Both the position numbers and the translations under genes were made by a program. Source: Nitrospirota bacterium (GTDB taxonomy: Bacteria; Nitrospirota; Thermodesulfovibrionia; Thermodesulfovibrionales; SM23-35). From it: a stretch of DNA of 64,000 bases. Below the pieces are notes generated by a model that saw nothing but the letters and a program-made list of their open reading frames with translations, had not been told where the DNA came from and searched no databases. Shown piece after piece: positions 168 through 63,464 of this stretch. How positions within the stretch are numbered: position 1 is the first letter of the stretch; every line of letters starts with the position of its first letter. Where the stretch lies: assembly GCA_014859105.1 (NCBI GenBank), contig JACUUX010000005.1, forward strand, positions 1,759 through 65,758, in the 5' to 3' direction.

Positions 168-1337
168 TCATGGGATGATCGCATATTTTATTCCTTCGCC
201 TTTTGACAGCTTATCGAATGCCTTTTGTATATTTTTTAGTGAATATCTCTCTGAAATAAGCTTCGAAACCTTAAGTTTTTTTGTTCGGAGAAGATCGTAA
301 GCCTTCTGCACATCTGATGGTGTATAATGGAAAACGCATCTCAGCGTTATCTCATTATAGTGGAGCCTACCTGCATCATAGGTTACTTTTGTGCCTGATT
401 TGCAACCGCCAAATAAGATAACTGTTCCGCCTCTTCTTACATAATTTATAGACGACTCCCATACCTCGGGCATTCCGGTGCATTCAAAGACGTAATCAAA
501 TCCAATGTTATTGGTGAATTTATTTAACTTAATATCCCCCTCACCCTTACCCTCTCCCACGAGGGGAGAGGGAATATATTCTTTGAAAAGTGACGATGAT
601 ACCCTATCGGATATTATTTCGTTTCTCAGCCATGTGTGTCCTGATAAACTCCCCTCCCTCGATGGGAGGGGTGTAGGGGAGGGTGAATCAGTAATTTTAG
701 AATTTATTACAAAATCCGCTCCAAGTTTTCTTGCAACATTAAGTTTCTTGCGATGTTTATCTGTTATAGTTACCCGCGCTCCCTTTTGTTTTAAAAGTAA
801 TAGATGTAGAAGTCCGATAGGTCCCGCACCTATAACAAGTGTGTTGTTATTTTTCTGAATATTGAGAGACTCTATGCCGTGAACTACACACGATAAGGGC
901 TCGAGAAAAGCAGCTTCTTCAAAAGTTATATTTTTAGGTTTATGAAATACATTTTGTTTTAGAATATGTGAAGGTAAAACCATATATTCTGCAAAAGCAC
1001 CGAGTATCTTTGTCTCCATTATCTTTTCACAGAGATTAGATGCCTTTTTTTTACAAAAGGCACACTTAAGACATGGAGCGCTATGAACTGACATTATCTC
1101 ATCACCTTCTTTGAATCTTCTCACTCCCCTGCCAACACCAGCAACTATCCCGGAAAATTCATGTCCGAAAACCCCAGGCATAGGGATCACAGGGTGGCCA
1201 CGTTTATAGGCTTTGAGATCAGTCCCACATGTCAGTGCTGCTTTGATCTTTACAAGTATTTCCCCGTGAAATGGTTTCGGAGTATTGATTTCCCGGAGTT
1301 CTATCTTACCCGGTTGAATAATGAAGCATGCCAGCAA
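168..1337 (-). CDS. Zn-dependent alcohol/polyol dehydrogenase (MDR family) with an in-frame repeat insertion
   Basis: Track ORF 168..1478 shows GHEFSG, the structural-Zn Cys cluster CLKCAFCKK and Rossmann GAGPIGL. Start moved to TTG 1337 (GGAG 8 nt upstream), directly after the stop of the upstream small ORF. Confidence 0.8.
   Translation of the reverse strand: MLACFIIQPGKIELREINTPKPFHGEILVKIKAALTCGTDLKAYKRGHPVIPMPGVFGHEFSGIVAGVGRGVRRFKEGDEIMSVHSAPCLKCAFCKKKASNLCEKIMETKILGAFAEYMVLPSHILKQNVFHKPKNITFEEAAFLEPLSCVVHGIESLNIQKNNNTLVIGAGPIGLLHLLLLKQKGARVTITDKHRKKLNVARKLGADFVINSKITDSPSPTPLPSREGSLSGHTWLRNEIISDRVSSSLFKEYIPSPLVGEGKGEGDIKLNKFTNNIGFDYVFECTGMPEVWESSINYVRRGGTVILFGGCKSGTKVTYDAGRLHYNEITLRCVFHYTPSDVQKAYDLLRTKKLKVSKLISERYSLKNIQKAFDKLSKGEGIKYAIIP
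536..688. repeat. ~153-nt palindromic-ended element inside the ADH coding frame
   Basis: Left end is CCCCTCACCCTTACCCTCTCCCACGAGGGGAGAGGG. Right end is CCCCTCCCTCGATGGGAGGGGTGTAGGGGAGGGTGA. The ends are inverted relative to each other and each is a hairpin. The element adds about 51 aa (DSPSPTPLPSREGS...PSPLVGEGKGEGD) in a surface loop of the Rossmann domain. Confidence 0.7.
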
Positions 1338-5146: not shown

Positions 5147-5199
5147 GAATAATACCTACTTACAAGTGTCATTGACCCGAAAATGTATCCGCCAGTTTT

Positions 5200-5300
5200 A
5201 TCATGCCGGCTTGTCCGGCATCTTTCTTCAAATCGCTAAATAAGGATTCCCGACAAGCCCTGTTAGAAATGAACTTTCTAACAGGGCAAGCGGGAATGAC
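5200..5300. repeat. GTCAT...ATGAC family copy 2, carrying a nested small palindrome
   Basis: ATCATGCCGGCTTGTCCGGCATCTTTCTTCAAA...GGATTCCCGACAAG[CCCTGTTAGAAATGAACTTTCTAACAGGG]CAAGCGGGAATGAC. Confidence 0.8.
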
Positions 5301-6706: not shown

Positions 6707-6919
6707 GAATTATGTTTGCTTATATGGGAGAAAATTTTCAAGCTATAGAAGGCGTGATAGGAATGTTCAGGACAATATTTCCCAACATTGCAATAAAATT
6801 GTATTATTTCTAATAAAAGGCGAAACACAAATATTCAGAATAATACTTTATAGCTAATGTAATGTCTCTCAATTAAGTGGAGTAATCAAGGAGATGATTA
6901 GTAAAGCTGTTCTTACTCT

Positions 6920-6992
6920 GTCATTCAGGCTCGTCCGGAATCTTTCTTCCGTTTCAGAAGGATTCCCGACGCCCTTCGCTTGCGGGAATGAC
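6920..6992. repeat. GTCAT...ATGAC family copy 4
   Basis: GTCATTCAGGCTCGTCCGGAATCTTTCTTCCGTTTCAGAAGGATTCCCGACGCCCTTCGCTTGCGGGAATGAC. Confidence 0.8.
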
Positions 6993-7090: not shown

Positions 7091-8134
7091 ATGAAAAAAA
7101 TATTGCTATTTTTCTTGCTTTTTTTATCTTCTGTAGCCTTTGCCCGGGAATTCTTAGATGTAACACCTGAATATAGAATAAAACTTCCTGAAGATTTTTA
7201 TTTCAAAAAAGAGTACAGAGTCCAGTGGTGGTATTTTACAGGACATCTGTTTGACAAAAATGGCAGGGAATTCGGATATGAGCTTACATTTTTTGTTGTG
7301 AATGTCCACAAAACAAATTATAAATCTCAATTCGGGGTAAACACTATATATATCTCACATTTTGCGATCTCAGATGTGAACGGAAACAAATTTTATTTCA
7401 GTGATAAGGCAGATGCAGGTGCATTCGGCTTTGCAGGTGCAAAAAAAGATCAGCTTGAGGTGTGGGTAGGGAAAAACGTCCTGAAAGGTAACATCGATAA
7501 AATGAATCTCAAGGCTTCAGATGATAAGAATATGATTGATCTAAAGTTGATGCCTGCAAAGCCCGTTGTCCTTAACGGTGAAAACGGATATTCAAGGAAG
7601 TCGGAAGAATCACCGTTGATTTCTTCGATATACTTTTCTTATACGAACATGAAAACCGAAGGAACATTAAAGACAGGTAATCAAACGTTTAATGTGAAAG
7701 GAAAGAGCTGGTTTGACAGGGAAATCTCATCAAGGGGTCTGTCGGAGAATCAGGAAGGATGGGACTGGTTTGCGATACAGCTTGATGATGGAAGGGAAAT
7801 AATGCTCTATATACTGAGAAATAAGGATGGCTCAATTGACAGGTATTCTTCAGGAACTTTTGTTTGTACTGATGGAAAATACCGGCTTCTTTCAATAGAT
7901 GACTTTAATGTAAAAGTCTTAGCTTCCTATAAATCTAAAAAAACAAAGGCAAGATATCCTTCTAAGTGGGATATCCGGATTCCATCCGAAAATCTTGTCC
8001 TTCTCGTCACACCTCTCATCGAAGATCAGGAAATACTTGCTTACGGCACAACAGGTAATTATTACTGGGAAGGGGCATGTAAGGTTGAAGGGACAGCAAA
8101 GGGCAGGGCATATGTGGAGATGACAGGATACTGA
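7091..8134 (+). CDS. secreted AttH/CrtC-like lipocalin-fold protein
   Basis: Signal peptide, then WWYFTGHL and GYELTFF motifs typical of the AttH / hydroxyneurosporene-synthase-like family. It sits upstream of an ABC ATPase and FtsX permease, as in the att-type cluster. Confidence 0.65.
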   Translation: MKKILLFFLLFLSSVAFAREFLDVTPEYRIKLPEDFYFKKEYRVQWWYFTGHLFDKNGREFGYELTFFVVNVHKTNYKSQFGVNTIYISHFAISDVNGNKFYFSDKADAGAFGFAGAKKDQLEVWVGKNVLKGNIDKMNLKASDDKNMIDLKLMPAKPVVLNGENGYSRKSEESPLISSIYFSYTNMKTEGTLKTGNQTFNVKGKSWFDREISSRGLSENQEGWDWFAIQLDDGREIMLYILRNKDGSIDRYSSGTFVCTDGKYRLLSIDDFNVKVLASYKSKKTKARYPSKWDIRIPSENLVLLVTPLIEDQEILAYGTTGNYYWEGACKVEGTAKGRAYVEMTGY

Positions 8135-8148
8135 TATGTTCAATGATA

Positions 8149-8266
8149 ATAAAAGCAGGATATGGTATTTTCGCTCATTCTCGACCCTTATAAAATCGGG
8201 GTCTGCGAGGCAAATTCTTTCTTCGAAAGAATTTAAATCCGCTCAAATACCATATCCTGCTTTTAT
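8149..8266. repeat. 118-bp element with perfect 22-bp terminal inverted repeats
   Basis: ATAAAAGCAGGATATGGTATTT (8149..8170) is the exact reverse complement of 8245..8266. The interior holds the hairpin AAATTCTTTCTTCGAAAGAATTT. Confidence 0.8.
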
Positions 8267-8316
8267 GGATTACAAAATTAGGGGACAGGAATGTCCCGTC
8301 ACAGGAAAAATGGAGA

Positions 8317-8961
8317 ATGATAAAACTCGAAGATGTAGAAAAATATTACGGTAATAACAGGGTTCTCAAGGGAATAAACCTGGAAGTAAGAAGGGGTGAT
8401 TTTGTCTCTGTTATGGGTAGTTCGGGATCAGGAAAATCCACATTGTTAAACCTTATAGGTGGAATGGACAGGCCGGAAAAGGGAAGAATCTTTGTCGATG
8501 GTTCGGAGATTTCGGCATATAATGACGAGCAGCTTACGCTCTACAGACGGGAAAAGGTTGGCTTTATATTCCAGTTTTTCAACCTTTTGCCGAACATCAC
8601 AGTTTTTGAAAATATCGCAATGCCTCTGCTTTTAAATGGATCTGACGACGAAAAGAAAGTTTTTGAGTTTATAAAAAGGGTTGGCCTGGAGGGAAAAGAA
8701 AACGAATATCCTTATAAGGTTTCAGGCGGTGAACAGCAGAGGGTCGCTATCGCAAGGGCATTGATACATGAACCCGAAATCATTCTTGCAGACGAGCCGA
8801 CAGGAAGTCTGGACAGTGAGACGGGCAAGATGATAATGGATCTGATTACACAACTCGCAGAAGAAAAAGGAAAAACGGTTATCCTGGTTACCCATGAATC
8901 ATATATTGCAGAATACGCACAGAGGATAGTCAGGATAAAGGATGGGATAATTCTAAAATGA
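8317..8961 (+). CDS. ABC transporter ATP-binding protein (MacB/LolD-like)
   Basis: Walker [10 protein letters not shown], signature SGGEQQR, Walker B ILADEPT. Confidence 0.9.
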
Positions 8962-11498
8962 ACAAAAACTTTTTAAAACTGATAAAACTCCTTGTACTAA
9001 AAAACATCAGGCAGGAGAAATTCCTTACCTTTCTGTCCATAATCGGCATAGCTCTCGGCATAGGACTTTTTGTCGGCGTCAAGGTTGCTTCTGACCGTGC
9101 TATTTCTTCCTTCGAGGCGGATATCAAAGGCATGAGTCCGCATGCCAATTACGAGGTTTTTGATATTTCAGGGATAGATTTCAGTGAACATATATATAGA
9201 AACATACGGGAACTAAAAGAAGAAAGCTTCCCTGTATTGAAAACTTTTGCTTATCTTCCCGCGTTAAAAGAGACTGTTGACATAAACGGTATTTATTCTG
9301 TGAAAGCTTTCCGTTTTCTAAATCTGAATCCTGATAAAAAGATTGATATCGAGAACTTTTACAGAAAGCTGAACGGTATTATCCTCACCAAAAAATTTGC
9401 TGAGAGATATTCACTGAAAAAAGGTGATATATTAAAACCCCTTGTTTATAACAGGGAATACACCCTGAATGTAGTCGACATCATTGATTCCGATTCCATC
9501 CTTGCAAATACGGTGATAATGGACATCGGTAACTTTCAGGAGTATTTTGATAAGACAGGTTATCTTACGAGGATTGACATTGCAACAGACGAGAAGACAG
9601 CCAATGAGATAAAAAGAATACTTCCTTTTAATCTCAGGATTGAAAAGAAGGAAGAAATATTTAAAAACCAGAAATCCATGATAGCATCTTTCCGTTATAA
9701 CCTGCAGTTCATAAGTCTGGTTGCAATCCTTGTCGGAATATTTCTGCTCTACAATACCGTATTCATTTCAGTAGTAAAAAGGAGGACGGAGATAGGAATT
9801 TTAAGGGGCATTGGTGCAGATAAAACAACGATAATCATGCTCTTTATTATTCAGGGCATGGTATTGGGCTTTATCGGTTCATTAATCGGTGTCACGTTGG
9901 GGCAGTTAGCAGCCTATTTTTCCGTAATCGCAGTAGAAAAGACCATATCAACAATGTACAGCACAATATCCATTGCTGATTATCTTATAACAAAAAATGA
10001 TGCTTTCATGGCGTTGCTCTTAGGTATGTTAGTATCACTCATAGCCTCGGCAATCCCGGCTTATGAAGCCTCGAAAATAAGACCTAACGAGACATCGAGA
10101 GAAGGTTCGTTCGAGGGCAAGTATAAGGGTTATCAGAAAATTTTTTTAGTTGCCGGAATCTTTTTTATACTATCAGGACTGATTTTATCTTATATTGATT
10201 ATATTTATACTCCGTTTGATTTTCCTATTTTTTCATATCTTGGAATACTTTTTATCATTGCAGGTTTTACATTTATCTCCCCCTTTTATCTGTCCATCAT
10301 TCTAAGAGCCATAAAAAACCCGTTAGAGAAAATATTCAGATCAACTGGGAAGATAACCCTTGGAGATATGAGAGGAAATAGTTACAGATTTTCTGTTGCC
10401 CTGATGAGTGTTGCCATCAGCAGCGCATTGATTATCGCACTTTTAACATTAATCTTTTCCTTGAGAGTGTCTCTGAAAGGGTGGATAAACCAGTACATAG
10501 TGGCGGACGTCTATATAAAGCCTGCCTCGTGCAAATCCAATTACTGTTTTTATCCGGTTTCAGAGGAAGTCTTTGAGACAGTGAAAAGGTTTCCTGAAGT
10601 AGCAGGAGTTGACAAATTCAGGGCTTTGCATCTGAATCTGTACGGAAAGAAAGTTATATCGGGTTTTGCTGATGTCGAAGTTAAAAGAAAATATTCAAGG
10701 AAAATATATTTTGAAAAGGAATATGAGGAAATTCTGAAGGAGATGGAGAGTAATGAGATGGTAGCAGGGATTTCAGATTACCTGAGCATTAAGTACGGGC
10801 TTAAAAAAGGGGACTTTATCGAGCTTGACACTCCGAGTGGGAAGGCGGCATTTCGAATAAATGATGTGTCCTCAAGCTATTCCACAACTTCAGGCTTTAT
10901 ATATATTGACCGGAAATGGTTAAAGAAGTTCTGGGGAATTGATGATGCGACACAATTCAGTATTTACCTGAAAGATGCTGTAGATATTGACAATTTCATT
11001 CAGAAATTGAAAGAAAAACTGTTGCCGTATTATTCTCTTGAAATAATGAACAACCAGGAACTGCGCCGGAAGATCATGGACATATTCAACAAGAGTTTTG
11101 CGATCACATATGCAATAGAACTCATATCAATCATCGTTTCTTTGATAGGAGTGATAAACACTTTGCTCGCACTCGTTTTTGAAAGGAAAAGGGAGATAAG
11201 CATTATCAGGTACCTCGGAGGCAGATGGAAGCAGATACGGAATACACTTGTCCTTTCTGCGGGAATAGTAGGGATTACAGGGATATTCTTAGGTACCATC
11301 CTCGGCCCCCTTATGAGTACAATATTTATTCATGTAGTAAATAAGATTTCCTTCGGATGGGAAATACACTTCCAGATACCATTCCTCTACCTTTCAGTCG
11401 TAATCTTTATTTTATTTCTCACGACACTATTTGCAGGATTTTTGCCTTCTAAAGTTGCTCAAAAAATTGATCCGAAGAGGTTTATTAGTTTTGAGTGA
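8958..11498 (+). CDS. ABC transporter permease with two FtsX domains
   Basis: 846 aa with two blocks of four TM helices separated by large periplasmic regions. Overlaps the ATPase stop by 4 nt. Confidence 0.85.
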
Positions 11499-17558: not shown

Positions 17559-17686
17559 GAAGGGGCTATTTAAAAAAATTAATCAAGTTTAGAGTTTATA
17601 AACCCGTGCCTATTGAGGGGAGGAATATCCTTTTTTTAGAGTTACTAAAAAGAAAATAGATAATATCACATTCCTGTACCTATTTT

Positions 17687-17745
17687 GTCATGCTGCCTTG
17701 TCCGGCATCTTTCTTGAAGAAGGATTCCAGACAAGCTGGAATGAC
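17687..17745. repeat. GTCAT...ATGAC family copy 5
   Basis: GTCATGCTGCCTTGTCCGGCATCTTTCTTGAAGAAGGATTCCAGACAAGCTGGAATGAC. Confidence 0.8.
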
Positions 17746-17801
17746 AGGCGATGTAGTATTACTTATAAAATCCTTAGTTAGACTCAATTTAGGAGATATT
17801 C

Positions 17802-23144: not shown

Positions 23145-25871
23145 TTATCTCCGAATGCTTCTCCTCTTCCACCACTTTTCAATCTCAACAGCGAAGAAAA
23201 CAACTGAAGACAGTCCAAAACACAACAATAACTCGGACAACGTAAGGGGGTTTGTTTTGAATATCGGGTTCAGATAAGGCACATATATTGTTGCCAGTTG
23301 AAGCAAGACAGTCAGTATAAATGCACCAATCAATGGCTTGTTAGATAATATCCCCTGTGAATAAAGAGATTCTTTCTCTGACCTGACTGCAAGGACATTG
23401 CCCATCTGACTAAGGCATAATACTGTAAACACCATAGTCTGCCAGTGCGTATTACCTGCATTGATTGCCATCGCCTGAGTAAATATAGAGACAGCACCCA
23501 TAAGAAGACCGACCCAGATTATTTGAATCCACATACCTGTAAATATATTTTCCTGGGGGTCCCTCGGTGGCCTTTTCATAATATCTTTCTCTGCCGGTTC
23601 TGCCGCAAGTGCCAGACCGGGAAGTCCATCTGTAACAAGATTAATCCATAAAATATGGATTGGCAGAAGCGGAAGAGGGAGTCCGAGGAAAGGTGCAAGG
23701 AATATCGTCCATATCTCTCCTGAATTGCTTGTCATAGTATATCTTATAAATTTACGTATATTATCAAATATCCGTCTGCCTTCCCTGACAGCTTTAACAA
23801 TAGTAGCGAAGTTGTCATCCAGTAATATCATGTGTGCTGCTTCTTTTGCCACATCAGTACCTGTAATACCCATCGCCACTCCTATATCCGCCCTTTTCAA
23901 TGCAGGCGCATCATTGACACCGTCTCCTGTCATTGCAACAAACTGCTTCCTGTCCTGAAGTGCCTTGATTATCTTCAACTTCTGTTCAGGTGCTACACGT
24001 GCATAAACTCTTATATCTTCAACCTGTTCCTCGAATTCTTCTAATGGTAATTTCTCAAGCTCCATCCCTGTGATTAGCGCTTTTGAATCATCCTCAATGA
24101 TACTGAGCCTCTTAGCAATTACCCTTGCTGTAATTGGATGATCACCTGTAATCATCACGGGTTTTATCCCCGCAGTTTTACATAATGCTACTGCCTCTTT
24201 AGCTTCTTCTCTTGGAGGGTCCATCATGCCTATAAGCCCTAAGAGGGTAAGCTCTGATTCAATATTTTCAGGTGACATATCATCTGGCAATGCATTCCAG
24301 GTTCTCATTGCAATACACAAAACCCTTAATCCATCAGCAGCCATTCTTTCACCTGCCTGTATTATTTCCAATGGATTGACAGGTTTTATTCCCTCTGCTG
24401 TAAAGATGCCCATTGATCTTTCAATAAGCACATCAATCGCACCCTTTGTGAAGGAAACAAATCCCCCCCTGCCCCCCTTTTCTAAAGGGGGGTGAGGGGG
24501 GATTACATGAAACGTGGTCATACACTTCCTGTCTGAATCAAAGGGTATTTCACTGACCCTTACAAATTTCCTTTCAAGCACTTTTTTATGAAAACCGTTA
24601 TCTTTCGCAATATTATAAAGGGCAATTTCTGTGGGGTCGCCGATGACATTGCCCTGGGCGTCCATATGTGCATCGTTGCTTAAGGCAAGAGCAGTCATCA
24701 GTAAATCATGCGGTGATTGAAATAAGGATGCATGATGCATGATACCAGATGCATTATTTCCTGTATCCTGAGGCTTATATCCGGAATCCTGCACCGTGCA
24801 TCTTAACTCCTGTACCTTGATCATCTTTCCATCCACCCGCAACTCTTCCACCGCCATCTTGTTCAATGTAAGTGTTCCAGTCTTGTCAGAGCATACGTAT
24901 GTGACGGATCCGAGGGTCTCCACCGCAGGGAGTTTTCTTATGAGAGCATTCTGTTTGACCATCTTTTTAGCACCAATTGCAAGAGAAATGGTTACAACCG
25001 CAGGCAGTGCCTCAGGTATTGCTGCAACAGCAAGGGATACGGCTGTGAGAAGCATCAAAAGAGGGGGTTCTCCTCTAAATATTCCTATGCTGAAAACAAT
25101 AGCGCATATGCCCAAAACTGCAATAGCGAGTTTCTGACCAAACCTGGCAAGCCTCTTCTGGAGAGGTGTCTTTACCTCTTTTTCTTCCTGAAGCAAGGTT
25201 GCAATCCTGCCCAGTTCTGTCTCCATACCGGTCATTGCAACAATACCTGTTCCCCGACCATATGTAGCGAATGTTCCCTTATACGCCATGTTTTTCCTGT
25301 CACCGATTGGTAAAAGCTCACCATGCAGTGGCTTAGTATGTTTTTCTATCGGTATGGATTCCCCTGTCAATGCTGCCTCTTCAATTTTTAGCTGAACAGC
25401 CTCCGTAAGCCTCATATCGGCAGGAACAATCTTTCCTGCTTCAAGGATTACAATATCACCCGGAACGACTTGAGATGCAGGGATATTTAAAAGCATCCCA
25501 TCCCTCATTACTGTTGCAATGGGCGCTGCCATTTTTTTAAGGGCGGCCATTGCCTTCTCAGCCCTGTATTCCTGAACAAATCCTATTACGGCGTTTATGA
25601 TGATAATCACCAATATTGCTATGGTATCTGCAAGCTCTCCGATTATTCCTGAGACTATTGCAGCAATCATAAGGACAATAATCATGAAGTCACTGAATTG
25701 ATCAAGGAACATTATGAGAGGGTTTTTCTTCTTTTTTTCTTTTAATATGTTTAGACCATAATGCCCGAGTCTCCTCCTGGCTTCATCACTGGAAAGTCCG
25801 TCCGGCGAAGTTTTTAACTCGCTAAAAATGCTGTCTATATCTTTTTGGTGCCAATGCATATTATTTTTCAT
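23145..25871 (-). CDS. cation-transporting P-type ATPase (P2, Ca2+/Mg2+-type) with two in-frame repeat insertions
   Basis: DKTGTLT, TGES, PEALPAV (TM4), [11 protein letters not shown]. Confidence 0.9.
24470..24514. repeat. 45-nt G6/C6 palindrome inside the ATPase frame
   Basis: AATCCCCCCCTGCCCCCCTTTTCTAAAGGGGGGTGAGGGGGGATT; encodes [15 protein letters not shown]. Confidence 0.85.
24726..24793. repeat. ~70-nt CAGGAT/ATGCATC-rich element inside the ATPase frame
   Basis: Encodes [24 protein letters not shown] related element is present in tgt. Confidence 0.65.
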
Positions 25872-31423: not shown

Positions 31424-31457
31424 TTACTAAGGCGGCTATAAGTAAAGCTACATTGAT

Positions 31458-31522
31458 GTCATTCCCGCTTGTCGGGAATCTTTCTGAAAAAACCAGAAGG
31501 ATTGCGGACAAGCCGCAATGAC
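31458..31522. repeat. GTCAT...ATGAC family copy 6
   Basis: GTCATTCCCGCTTGTCGGGAATCTTTCTGAAAAAACCAGAAGGATTGCGGACAAGCCGCAATGAC. Confidence 0.85.
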
Positions 31523-31586
31523 AGAAAGTGATATGAATGTCGCCTTACTAATGACCGCATTAGTAATTAACAGATATAAAAAGAGA

Positions 31587-32460: not shown

Positions 32461-32583
32461 TAATACAAACGCATTAAGTAAAATGTCATTGCGAGGAGCG
32501 CTAGCGATGTGGCAATCCCAAAAACGAGATTGCTTCGCTTCGCTCGCAATGACAATGTAAAGATATTAAGTGCGTTTGTATTA
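32461..32583. repeat. ~123-bp element: CATTGCGAGG...GCAATGAC core flanked by 13-17-bp inverted repeats
   Basis: Core is GTCATTGCGAGGAGCGCTAGCGATGTGGCAATCC...GAGATTGCTTCGCTTCGCTCGCAATGAC. Outer inverted repeat is TAATACAAACGCA / TGCGTTTGTATTA. Confidence 0.75.
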
Positions 32584-37290: not shown

Positions 37291-39483
<2,193 letters not shown>

Positions 39484-39532
39484 AAAATTGCAGTCAAGAT
39501 AGGACATTCTTTTGCAGGTTTCAATAAATATA

Positions 39533-50914: not shown

Positions 50915-51051
50915 CAGCAATTCTCGGTGAAATTGAAAACCCTTGAGATTGCTTCGCTTCGCTCGCAATGACAAAACAATATTTCGTAAACAGTCATTGC
51001 GAGGGGCCTTATCCTGAAGCAATCTCCTAACTTTTTCGCCGAGAATTGCTG
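50915..51051. mobile_element. 137-bp MITE-like element with 13-14-bp TIRs and a flanking direct repeat
   Basis: TIRs are CAGCAATTCTCGG (50915..50927) and CCGAGAATTGCTG (51039..51051). Flanks are CACATTTA (50906..50913) and CACATTTA (51052..59). The interior holds two inverted CATTGCGAGG/GCAATC modules. Confidence 0.75.
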
Positions 51052-62687: not shown

Positions 62688-63416
62688 TCAAGCTGAACTT
62701 CTTAATTTCTCCAGAACCTTCTGTGCATCCTCCCAGGTCCGCCATTTATCTTTTGGGTTCCTGATTAAATAGGCAGGGTGAAATGTCGGCATCAAGAGAA
62801 TACCCTTGTAATCGAAAAATTTGCCACGTATTGATGTTATTTTTAACTTGGGATTTCCTGTAAGGGTTAGTGCTGCTATCCTGCCCAGGGCCATAATTAT
62901 TTTCGGCCTTATTATTTCTATCTGCCTTTCAAGAAAACTCCTGCATTTTTCTATCTCATCTGCTTCAGGCTCCCGATTCATAGGAGGTCTGCATTTAACT
63001 ATGTTTGCAATATATACATCCTCCCTCATGAATCCCATTTTTTCTATGAGCCTAGTGAGCAACATGCCTGCGTCTCCTACAAATGGTTTTGCCTGTAGGT
63101 CCTCTTGCTTACCGGGTGCCTCACCAATAAACATAAGATTTGCATCGGGATTGCCTTCTCCGAAAACTATATTTGTTCTTTGGATTGAAAGCTTGCACCT
63201 CCTGCAATCATTAATCTCTTCTCTCAGTGCTTTCAAGGCTGCCTCTTTAATCCCCCCACACCCCCCTTTAGAAAAGGGGGGTAAGGGGGGATTTTGGTTC
63301 AGAGATTTGACATCTGTAATTTGACTTTTGATTTTTAATTTTATCGGTAGATGTTCAAATCCTAATGCCTGATAAAATTCGAGAATGTTTTTTATTTGCT
63401 CAACAATACTTGCCAT
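62688..63416 (-). CDS. uracil-DNA glycosylase family 4 with an in-frame 45-nt palindrome
   Basis: CRRCKL, GEAPG, FHPAYLIRNP. Start at ATG 63416. Confidence 0.85.
   Translation of the reverse strand: MASIVEQIKNILEFYQALGFEHLPIKLKIKSQITDVKSLNQNPPLPPFSKGGCGGIKEAALKALREEINDCRRCKLSIQRTNIVFGEGNPDANLMFIGEAPGKQEDLQAKPFVGDAGMLLTRLIEKMGFMREDVYIANIVKCRPPMNREPEADEIEKCRSFLERQIEIIRPKIIMALGRIAALTLTGNPKLKITSIRGKFFDYKGILLMPTFHPAYLIRNPKDKWRTWEDAQKVLEKLRSSA
63249..63293. repeat. 45-nt G6/C6 palindrome inside the UDG frame
   Basis: AATCCCCCCACACCCCCCTTTAGAAAAGGGGGGTAAGGGGGGATT; encodes [15 protein letters not shown]. Confidence 0.85.
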
Positions 63417-63464
63417 TCTTAATTTTGAATTTTGAGTTTGAATTTTGAATTTCAAATTTTTTTA

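Follow-up and report, generated by a model that had tools for sequence, protein, structure and literature searches.

BoxC, PIT and TM_ECO are names for one kind of short repeat in Escherichia coli, on which the earlier work is reportedly that of Bergler and Bachellier in the 1990s and of Hoyne and Maher in 2000. Here we describe an inverted pair of modules (A and B) that both belong, judged by sequence, to this kind of repeat, and that lie inside and in frame with a zinc-dependent MDR dehydrogenase gene (hereafter ADH) of a Nitrospirota bacterium. The window, i.e., the whole stretch of DNA analyzed, comprises 64,000 nt of a metagenome-assembled genome (MAG; GenBank assembly GCA_014859105.1, contig JACUUX010000005.1, positions 1,759 to 65,758). 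The published TM_ECO pattern is CCCTCNCCC N3-6 GGGNGAGGG N3 GGGNGAGGG (Holder et al., 2015; PMC4666352). According to the same study, the E. coli motif as single-stranded DNA forms a very stable triplex (the consensus only, by circular dichroism and nuclear magnetic resonance) and halts DNA polymerase in vitro; the triplex was not detected in vivo, and PIT elements are without promoter or terminator activity and without in vivo effect (PMC4666352). Motif loci in E. coli are far more rearranged than controls, and palindromic pairs tend toward small losses that keep the hairpin (PMC4666352). The motif was reported to be always intergenic in E. coli MG1655, inverted pairs were found at 5 of 18 E. 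coli sites and always joined two different motif types, the 262 genomes with the motif were all proteobacterial, and the authors saw no tie to mobility genes in E. coli (PMC4666352). This was the one primary study of these motifs in the literature searched; it mentions neither intragenic copies nor Nitrospirota, and reports elsewhere are possible. A literature search with the peptide or DNA motif strings gave no matches.

The present locus shares with the BoxC/PIT/TM_ECO repeats the three-block, class II purine-motif architecture (exact pattern in module B), the inverted pairing of two motif types, the lack of a mobility-gene link (here in the 1.9 Mb of loci searched) and an unusually variable neighborhood. 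It differs in that the pair lies inside a gene and in frame, whereas the E. coli copies are intergenic, and in that the host is a Nitrospirota (Thermodesulfovibrionia) MAG and not a proteobacterium. In addition, the stems of module A are 8 nt long (CCCCTCCC/GGGAGGGG/GGGGAGGG) and the spacer between the modules is 78 nt. With respect to the literature searched, the intragenic in-frame location and the Nitrospirota host are new for this known kind of repeat.

Three other systems resemble the locus in part. REP sequences, REPINs and their RAYT partners are said to have been studied by Nunvar (2010), Bertels and Rainey (2011) and Di Nocera (2013). REP dimers and REPINs likewise consist of two inverted hairpin modules of ~35 nt; the spacer varies, there is no target-site duplication (TSD), and copies are at times nested in other palindromes and at times intragenic (PMC3733652). 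They differ by a conserved GTAG/CGTC tag, which is missing here, and by association with RAYT, of which no case was found in 1.9 Mb of loci; the modules here also carry one more purine block each, a mirror block. Rickettsia palindromic elements (RPEs) were reportedly described by Ogata et al. in 2000. They too are palindromic repeats of ~150 bp in frame in unrelated housekeeping genes, at sites compatible with fold and function (reviewed in PMC10969869). RPEs probably belong to other sequence families, are found in another host and keep a conserved peptide in a preferred frame, whereas the A/B family shows no adaptation of frame or length, has no conserved peptide and is intergenic in most copies. 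In fungal mitochondria, the GC clusters and the double-hairpin elements are G/C-rich hairpins in an AT-rich genome that insert in one another and in frame in coding regions. They are organellar and unrelated in sequence, and the analogy is a lead only.

The ADH protein has Pfam matches to ADH_N and ADH_zinc_N, its closest PDB relatives are sorbitol and threonine dehydrogenases (E 1e-38), and it is 100% identical to a database homolog (P0001). The segment between GAD and ECTG has the ancestral length of 32 residues in all deep relatives (e.g., GADFVFKPEKIENKIKSITNGIGFDYVFECTG) and 83 residues in the window protein. PDB and Pfam alignments are interrupted at query residues 217/281 (227/245 against 3qe3). 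The initial annotation had proposed a clean in-frame insertion in a zinc-dependent MDR dehydrogenase, and these alignments bear it out. The span that it gave, 536-688, has the right segment but is one base out of codon register; in frame, the insert is 537-689, and by the family boundaries the element spans about 534-688. The 153 nt are read in frame as DSPSPTPLPSREGSLSGHTWLRNEIISDRVSSSLFKEYIPSPLVGEGKGEG, which includes the peptide EYIPSPLVGEGK. Across six orthologs, identity at codon positions 1, 2 and 3 of ADH is 0.83, 0.90 and 0.51, which argues for purifying selection on the protein, and the frame is intact with invariant catalytic and zinc ligands. The start of the window lies within a syntenic block of a Nitrospirota (Thermodesulfovibrionia-like) contig, Ga0645781_00593 (JGI 3300076001). 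The insert DNA is 100% identical in the same gene in a second metagenome (L002). An ADH ortholog with 77% identity in another NCBI MAG (L003, GCA_040960625.1) also carries the insert, which is 91% identical to that of the window over the BLAST alignment, with 8 substitutions in 153 aligned bases and a 6-nt in-frame indel.

Both ends of the insert are perfect G/C hairpins (550-558/564-572 and 651-658/664-671), and the outer 18 nt (541-558 vs 669-686) are 72% complementary. The ends are thus mutually inverted C/G-tract hairpins, as first described. Neither end pattern was found elsewhere in the 64-kb window, nor in 100 shuffles. The DNA fold of the insert (-33.4 kcal/mol, z -4.5) and its RNA fold (-69 kcal/mol, z -4.8) beat all shuffles in ViennaRNA, which models duplex hairpins only. 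On the minus strand, module B is an exact match to the TM_ECO pattern, with 0 matches in 100 shuffles. Module A departs from the exact pattern and fits an 8-nt-stem analog, CCCCTCCC N5 GGGAGGGG N4 GGGGAGGG, unique in the window. Because of these two matches, the "palindromic-ended element" of the initial annotation is better described as an inverted pair of triplex motifs. Its ends are not simple terminal inverted repeats: each is a three-block BoxC/PIT/TM_ECO motif, in which a pyrimidine arm and a purine arm are complementary and a further purine block is the mirror of the purine arm. Mirror pairs are GGGAGAGGG with GGGTGAGGG, GGGAGGGG with GGGGAGGG and, in a C6/G6 hairpin family, AAGGGGGG with GGGGGGAT. 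In 1.9 Mb of loci the mirror third block accompanies ~92% of CCCCTCCC hairpins, it lies on one side in ~90% of such hairpins, and it co-varies with the stem across at least seven stem types. The third block is a mirror and not a complement, a relation that marks a purine-motif triplex and not a duplex. Module B is also found in E. coli, over ~40 nt at ~92% identity, in 5338 of 5426 complete genomes, and B-like copies occupy a median of 13 places per genome; the copy between flgF and flgG reads TTCCCTCGCCCCTTTGGGGAGAGGGTTAGGGTGAGGGG.

Several other identities for the insert were tried. An Rfam search of the segment gave nothing at E <=1 beyond noise, and an intein or self-splicing intron was rejected on that result and on the nature of the 51-aa stretch, which is of low complexity and contains no domain. 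The insert peptide had no phmmer match at E <=0.001 among 1.84 billion representatives and none in a word-indexed search; with so short a query of low complexity, these searches are uninformative. The centre was considered as a third hairpin that has decayed or as a duplicate of module B, but neither is supported: plain and transition-tolerant alignments showed no significant similarity to modules A or B, to the centres of other orthologs or to the centre of a pair in a second MDR gene (L028, see below). An 18-nt direct repeat around the insert (507-524/691-708) was rejected as a TSD: in the ortholog alignment both flanks are native codons and the length equals that of the empty site. The antisense frame across the insert is open as well (505-858 of the window, plus strand, a 117-aa ORF reading SPSPLPSPTRGEG...LPSLDGRGVGEGE). 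This ORF is a by-product of the palindromic C/G tracts and will probably give rise to spurious gene calls.

When the element was compared with the fetched loci by BLAST, the modules of ~36 nt at both ends proved to be dispersed repeats and the centre did not. The 153-nt element was initially taken as the repeated unit; the unit is instead the ~36-nt module, usually in an inverted pair of 76-87 nt, and the 78-nt centre is confined to this ADH and the L003 ortholog (among 1.2 Mb, only L001, L002 and L003 have copies of it). In these insert-bearing loci the spacer of 78 nt compares with a normal 5-35 nt in pairs of the family. The wider claim of a dispersed repeat family was correct. Modules A and B have dispersed copies in related MAG loci, and a metagenome scan (hairpin A, 5-35 nt spacer, hairpin B) found A/B pairs in at least 120 loci; within 74 kb of the host genome, the ADH copy stands alone. 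The finding that the initial annotation had named as contrary, homologs with the segment in genomes lacking the repeat, was not encountered: homologs share the segment and related genomes carry dispersed copies. Two loci (L083, L021) have intergenic A-13 nt-B pairs, and solo modules occur in L028 and L014. L028 also has an A-125 nt-B pair (8516-8705) in frame and in opposite orientation within an ORF (8016..9263) that encodes a second MDR paralog. The pair lies just before the GxGxxG motif, and the paralog adjoins the orthologous ADH. Further solo modules of L028 are at 9352-9390 and 9739-9814.

Among the matches listed, complete pairs measure 76-87 nt (mode 84), in host loci of G+C 0.35-0.68. 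The family termini in the flank logos of these matches are TCACCC...GGGTGAGGGG, with GTAG only sporadic, and no TSD was seen in the flank logos of 69 complete pairs. In the window, 684..688 plus 534-537 correspond to the termini TCACCC...GGGTGAGGGGGAT, and the ADH junctions read GAT|TCACCC...GAGGGG|GAT, where orthologs have TAT/TTT and CAT/TAC instead. Again among the matches listed, in 93 of 126 metagenomic pairs at least one side is open for fewer than 30 codons, and 17 of 126 have frames open for at least 60 codons on both sides, some of them spurious in high-GC contigs. Most of these pairs are intergenic and a minority are in frame in unrelated enzymes, by Pfam GT1, PIG-L, GT2 and HypF; Pfam also confirmed the second MDR paralog as an in-frame host. 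The modules lie in both orientations and in several frames in other genes, and the same module DNA is read as PSPLVGEGKGEG, PLPQGERE, PSPTGGEG and others. No pairs were found in viral contigs. Adaptation of the family to translation was rejected: frames are open no more often than in shuffles, lengths are spread evenly over mod 3, and one of the three sense frames of the 153-mer is open. Given this lack of adaptation, in-frame copies are survivors of selection. The hairpin stems of the family were also compared for covariation (a double change in 1 of 21 pairs), and the test was uninformative because the search pattern had fixed both stems. In L104, L107, L160, L161, L181, L188, L194, L200 and others, many A-B pairs are centred in a larger inverted repeat (CTAAGGAGTTCATAAGTAA ... 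TTACTTATGAACTCCTTAG), and another A-B subfamily lies within ATAGAGTCTGTTTATTAAC-type repeats. Both arrangements are composite nested palindromes.

The loop that holds the insert was followed in 200 orthologs, i.e., 120 database homologs of 57-77% identity and 80 orthologous loci from species-representative genomes. It is short (<=23 residues between the conserved V and FD) and empty in about 85 of the 200, including all deep outgroups, and long in 115. All internal insertions of at least 5 residues fall at core positions 209-222 of the joint alignment, and no comparable indel was found across the remaining ~330 columns. Long loops hold various G/C-hairpin peptides, namely SPSPTPLPSREG...PSPLVGEGKGEG (the window type), NPPSPPFSKGGQGGI, IPPRPPLVKGGWGD and THPCTPLKRG, and across the orthologs the loop carries at least three triplex-type repeat families. 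Insertions are nested in the L005 loop, while the loops of P0031, P0034 and P0042 are in-frame deletion derivatives. In a deep clade (L009, L013, L020, L024, L026 and L054) a 54-nt C6/G6 hairpin lies a few codons upstream of the window-type site; its entry is probably an independent event. The spacer between A and B is the main difference among orthologs and may be NNKKKV, the THPC hairpin or a longer mixture. Outside ADH genes, the A-B pair of L123 (62-170) has a third hairpin, ACACCCCTAAACCCCTCTCAAGAGGGGA, in its spacer. This is the same THPCTPLKRG module that lies between A and B in the ADH orthologs P0003 and P0007, and its presence fits spacer swapping through conversion with other copies. 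An ADH ortholog with 76% identity (L080, 10651-10744, JBGOWS010000004.1) is frameshifted within the loop of module A (CCCCTCCCCCCTCGAGGGAGGGG), which reflects either a true inactivation caused by the repeat or an assembly error in a homopolymer.

The insert site is in the Rossmann domain, after strand bC and ahead of the helix that precedes bD. The AlphaFold2 model from 120 sequences has a pTM of 0.73, with a Rossmann core at a predicted local distance difference test score (pLDDT) of about 90. Residues 215-276 are modeled without secondary structure (pLDDT 30-41), between strand 209-212 and a native helix 269-274 followed by strand 280-285. A model with 50 close sequences was discarded as too poor (pLDDT 55.7). 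The prediction, which is of moderate confidence, is consistent with a disordered surface excursion and agrees with the earlier suggestion that the insert might be extruded from the Rossmann domain.

Third codon positions at identical amino acids were compared in the six orthologs. Their identity is 0.53 in the ADH body, against 0.92 for module A and 0.88 for module B, and on this basis it was concluded that conservation of the DNA motif is independent of the protein. In the comparison of L001 with L003, mismatches amount to 8/153 in the element (5%, P about 1e-12) and 3/48 in the 48 native nt downstream (6%, P about 2e-4), compared with 21/48 in the 48 native nt upstream (44%) and 266/969 in the gene body (27%). 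The island of low divergence runs on into the native codons and is most simply explained by a swap of the segment between the lineages through homologous recombination.

Other hairpin repeats of the window are listed in Table 1 with the features of ADH. Both copies of the C6/G6 hairpin are in frame, one in a P-type ATPase gene (23145..25871) and one in a gene for a UDG-family protein (62688..63455), and the same family occupies the ADH loop in other lineages. The initial annotation counted the ADH insert as the third in-frame element family of the window. In-frame copies were found only for the triplex-type families, namely the ADH pair and the C6/G6 hairpins in the ATPase and UDG genes; the GTCATTCC... 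dimers are intergenic.

Table 1. Coordinates of the ADH gene, its insert and other repeats in the 64-kb window.
Feature	Position	Strand	Description	Evidence
MDR zinc-dependent dehydrogenase gene	168..1337	(-)	389 aa, starts with TTG, carries the insert	ORF list, Pfam, PDB
In-frame insert	537..689	(-)	51 codons, residues 217-267 of 389 aa	Translation, ortholog alignments
Module B (gene-3' end), TM_ECO/BoxC/PIT motif	538..572	(-), coding strand	CCCTCTCCC-CTCGT-GGGAGAGGG-TAA-GGGTGAGGG	
Module A (gene-5' end), 8-nt-stem triplex-motif variant	651..683	(+)	CCCCTCCC-TCGAT-GGGAGGGG-TGTA-GGGGAGGG	
Spacer (centre) between modules	573..650	(-)	78 nt, AT-rich, contains TATCAGGACACACATGGCTGA	
Outer terminus TGAAT	684..688	(.)	Element 5' end in gene orientation, ATTCA...	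Family alignment, flank logos
Native codons of ADH immediately downstream of the insert	488..535	(-)	DIKLNKFTNNIGFDY	High identity with L003
C6/G6 triplex-type hairpin copies	24459-24505 and 63248-63294		94% complementary to each other; AATCCCCCC-N3-CCCCCCTT-N5-AAGGGGGG-N3-GGGGGGATT	
Intergenic inverted hairpin dimers	1727-1794, 5196-5271, 17683-17749, 31454-31526, 39421-39487 (also 6916-6951)		REP-dimer-like, not in frame; GTCATTCCCGCTTGCCGGGAATC ... GATGCCGGACAAGCCGGCATGAC	
Identical 30-mers GAGATTGCTTCGCTTCGCTCGCAATGACAA	32526-32555 and 50945-50974		Beside GTCATTGCGAGG-type partners at 32473-32499 / 50981-51007; further hairpin repeat family	

The reading that we favor, and hold to be probable, is that a structure-prone repeat, an inverted pair of triplex motifs of the BoxC kind, is tolerated in a disordered surface loop and renders that loop unstable. 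An A/B pair would have entered ADH once, at the permissive loop, in the ancestor of the inner clade, and a second repeat family would have entered independently in the L009 clade. Tolerance would follow from translation of the pair into a harmless, disordered surface excursion rich in Pro, Ser, Gly and Glu. We propose that such motifs, by stalling replication and causing slippage and repair errors, made the loop a hotspot, and that only the frame-preserving products would persist. The modules may be held near their consensus by homogenization, i.e., ectopic gene conversion with other copies, and not by selection on the peptide, and segments may be exchanged between lineages by homologous recombination, as between L001 and L003. 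By analogy, the variation of the ADH loop is consistent with the TM-linked instability and hairpin-preserving deletions of E. coli.

Several points weigh against this reading. The intragenic place departs from the always-intergenic habit of the motif in E. coli MG1655 (PMC4666352). The step from structure to instability is taken over from E. coli, where the triplex was undetected in vivo. With only one copy of the two modules in 74 kb of the host genome, partners for ectopic conversion in this genome are hypothetical. Indels in a single loop could reflect selection alone, this being the only permissive site, and not raised mutation. A neighbor-joining tree was too noisy for counting gains and losses. 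Conservation at synonymous sites could also mean a functional DNA or RNA structure in ADH.

It is possible, though we think it unlikely, that the motifs are kept at consensus and repeatedly delivered to the ADH loop by an active sequence- or structure-specific process, for example an unrecognized mobilization or templated-conversion machinery that extends from Proteobacteria to Nitrospirota. The ADH loop would then be a recurrent landing pad, and selection within a coding gene would have the DNA motif as its unit rather than the peptide.

Another mechanism, which we consider improbable, is that of REPINs: a dimer of REP-type hairpins would be moved in trans as single-stranded DNA by a RAYT or an IS200-IS605-type HUH tyrosine transposase, and the ADH loop would have been hit repeatedly. 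The architecture is that of a REP head-to-head dimer (two inverted hairpin modules, a variable spacer and no TSD), the whole element can be folded as one long hairpin, and some A/B copies are nested in other palindromes or intragenic, as REPs are. Transposase genes were sought in 1.9 Mb by tblastn with IS200 TnpA and E. coli RAYT probes, and Y1_Tnp-like genes are present in some loci (L097, 4512-5084; L206, 13600-14517; L011). However, none of these three genes is flanked by modules A or B, the termini are TCAC.../...GTGA with no conserved GTAG or CGTC tag, and the E. coli authors report no link to mobility genes (PMC4666352). The L097 gene encodes a RAYT-like protein of 190 aa that is borderline for Y1_Tnp (22.7 bits vs a cut-off of 23). 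The protein seems to hold translated copies of another hairpin repeat (VETHSRASINAETHNNASL), and like repeats lie just downstream.

Slightly more doubtful is a structure useful to ADH itself, in DNA or mRNA, which would act as a programmed pause of replication or translation between the Rossmann halves or as a diversifier of the surface loop. Such a function would explain the synonymous identity of 0.88-0.92 in the modules against 0.53 in the body among six orthologs, the strong mRNA fold (-69 kcal/mol, z -4.8) and the high diversity of the loop among orthologs. It accords poorly with modules that are mostly intergenic, in either orientation and in various frames, and with the 85 of 200 orthologs, close relatives included, that lack any insert. 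With its degenerate copies, its deletions and a frameshift, the loop also has the look of debris, and PIT elements have neither promoter or terminator activity nor an in vivo effect in E. coli.

We regard as very improbable a classical MITE (miniature inverted-repeat transposable element), a non-autonomous derivative of a DDE transposon recognized via its terminal inverted repeats. A MITE reading is unsupported because neither a TSD (flank logos of 69 copies, among the matches listed) nor a link to a related transposase (in 1.9 Mb of loci) was found. The A/B pair is shorter than 200 bp, multi-copy and bounded by inverted termini (TCACCC...GGGTGA), and it is sometimes in frame, like RPEs and the MITEs of Coxiella and Anabaena; yet single modules are dispersed alone (E. 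coli, L028 and L014), and the conserved part is the internal three-block motif and not just the tips. An assembly chimera or an ADH pseudogene is hardly credible: G/C homopolymer tracts are error-prone and the L080 ortholog is frameshifted inside module A, but the insert is not an assembly artifact because it is identical in two independent metagenomes and also present in L003 (an NCBI MAG) and in dozens of orthologs, and the gene has an intact frame, invariant catalytic and zinc ligands and a body under strong purifying selection.

For genome annotation, many "PSPLVGEGKGEG", "PPFSKGGQGG" and "SPLPLWERVRVRG" peptides in MAG proteins may be translated triplex repeats. BoxC/PIT/TM repeats have been known in E. 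coli for ~30 years with local genome instability as the sole reported phenotype. The ADH locus is a natural experiment on the function and spread of these motifs, since it places the same motifs in an essential reading frame and in a distant phylum. Selection for the frame filters what the motifs do to their surroundings, and the outcomes are recorded in more than 100 orthologs as insertions nested in one another, deletions that preserve the hairpin, exchanged spacers and a single frameshift. At synonymous sites the motifs remain ~90% identical in a host gene that is saturated, which is direct evidence of something acting on the DNA motif.

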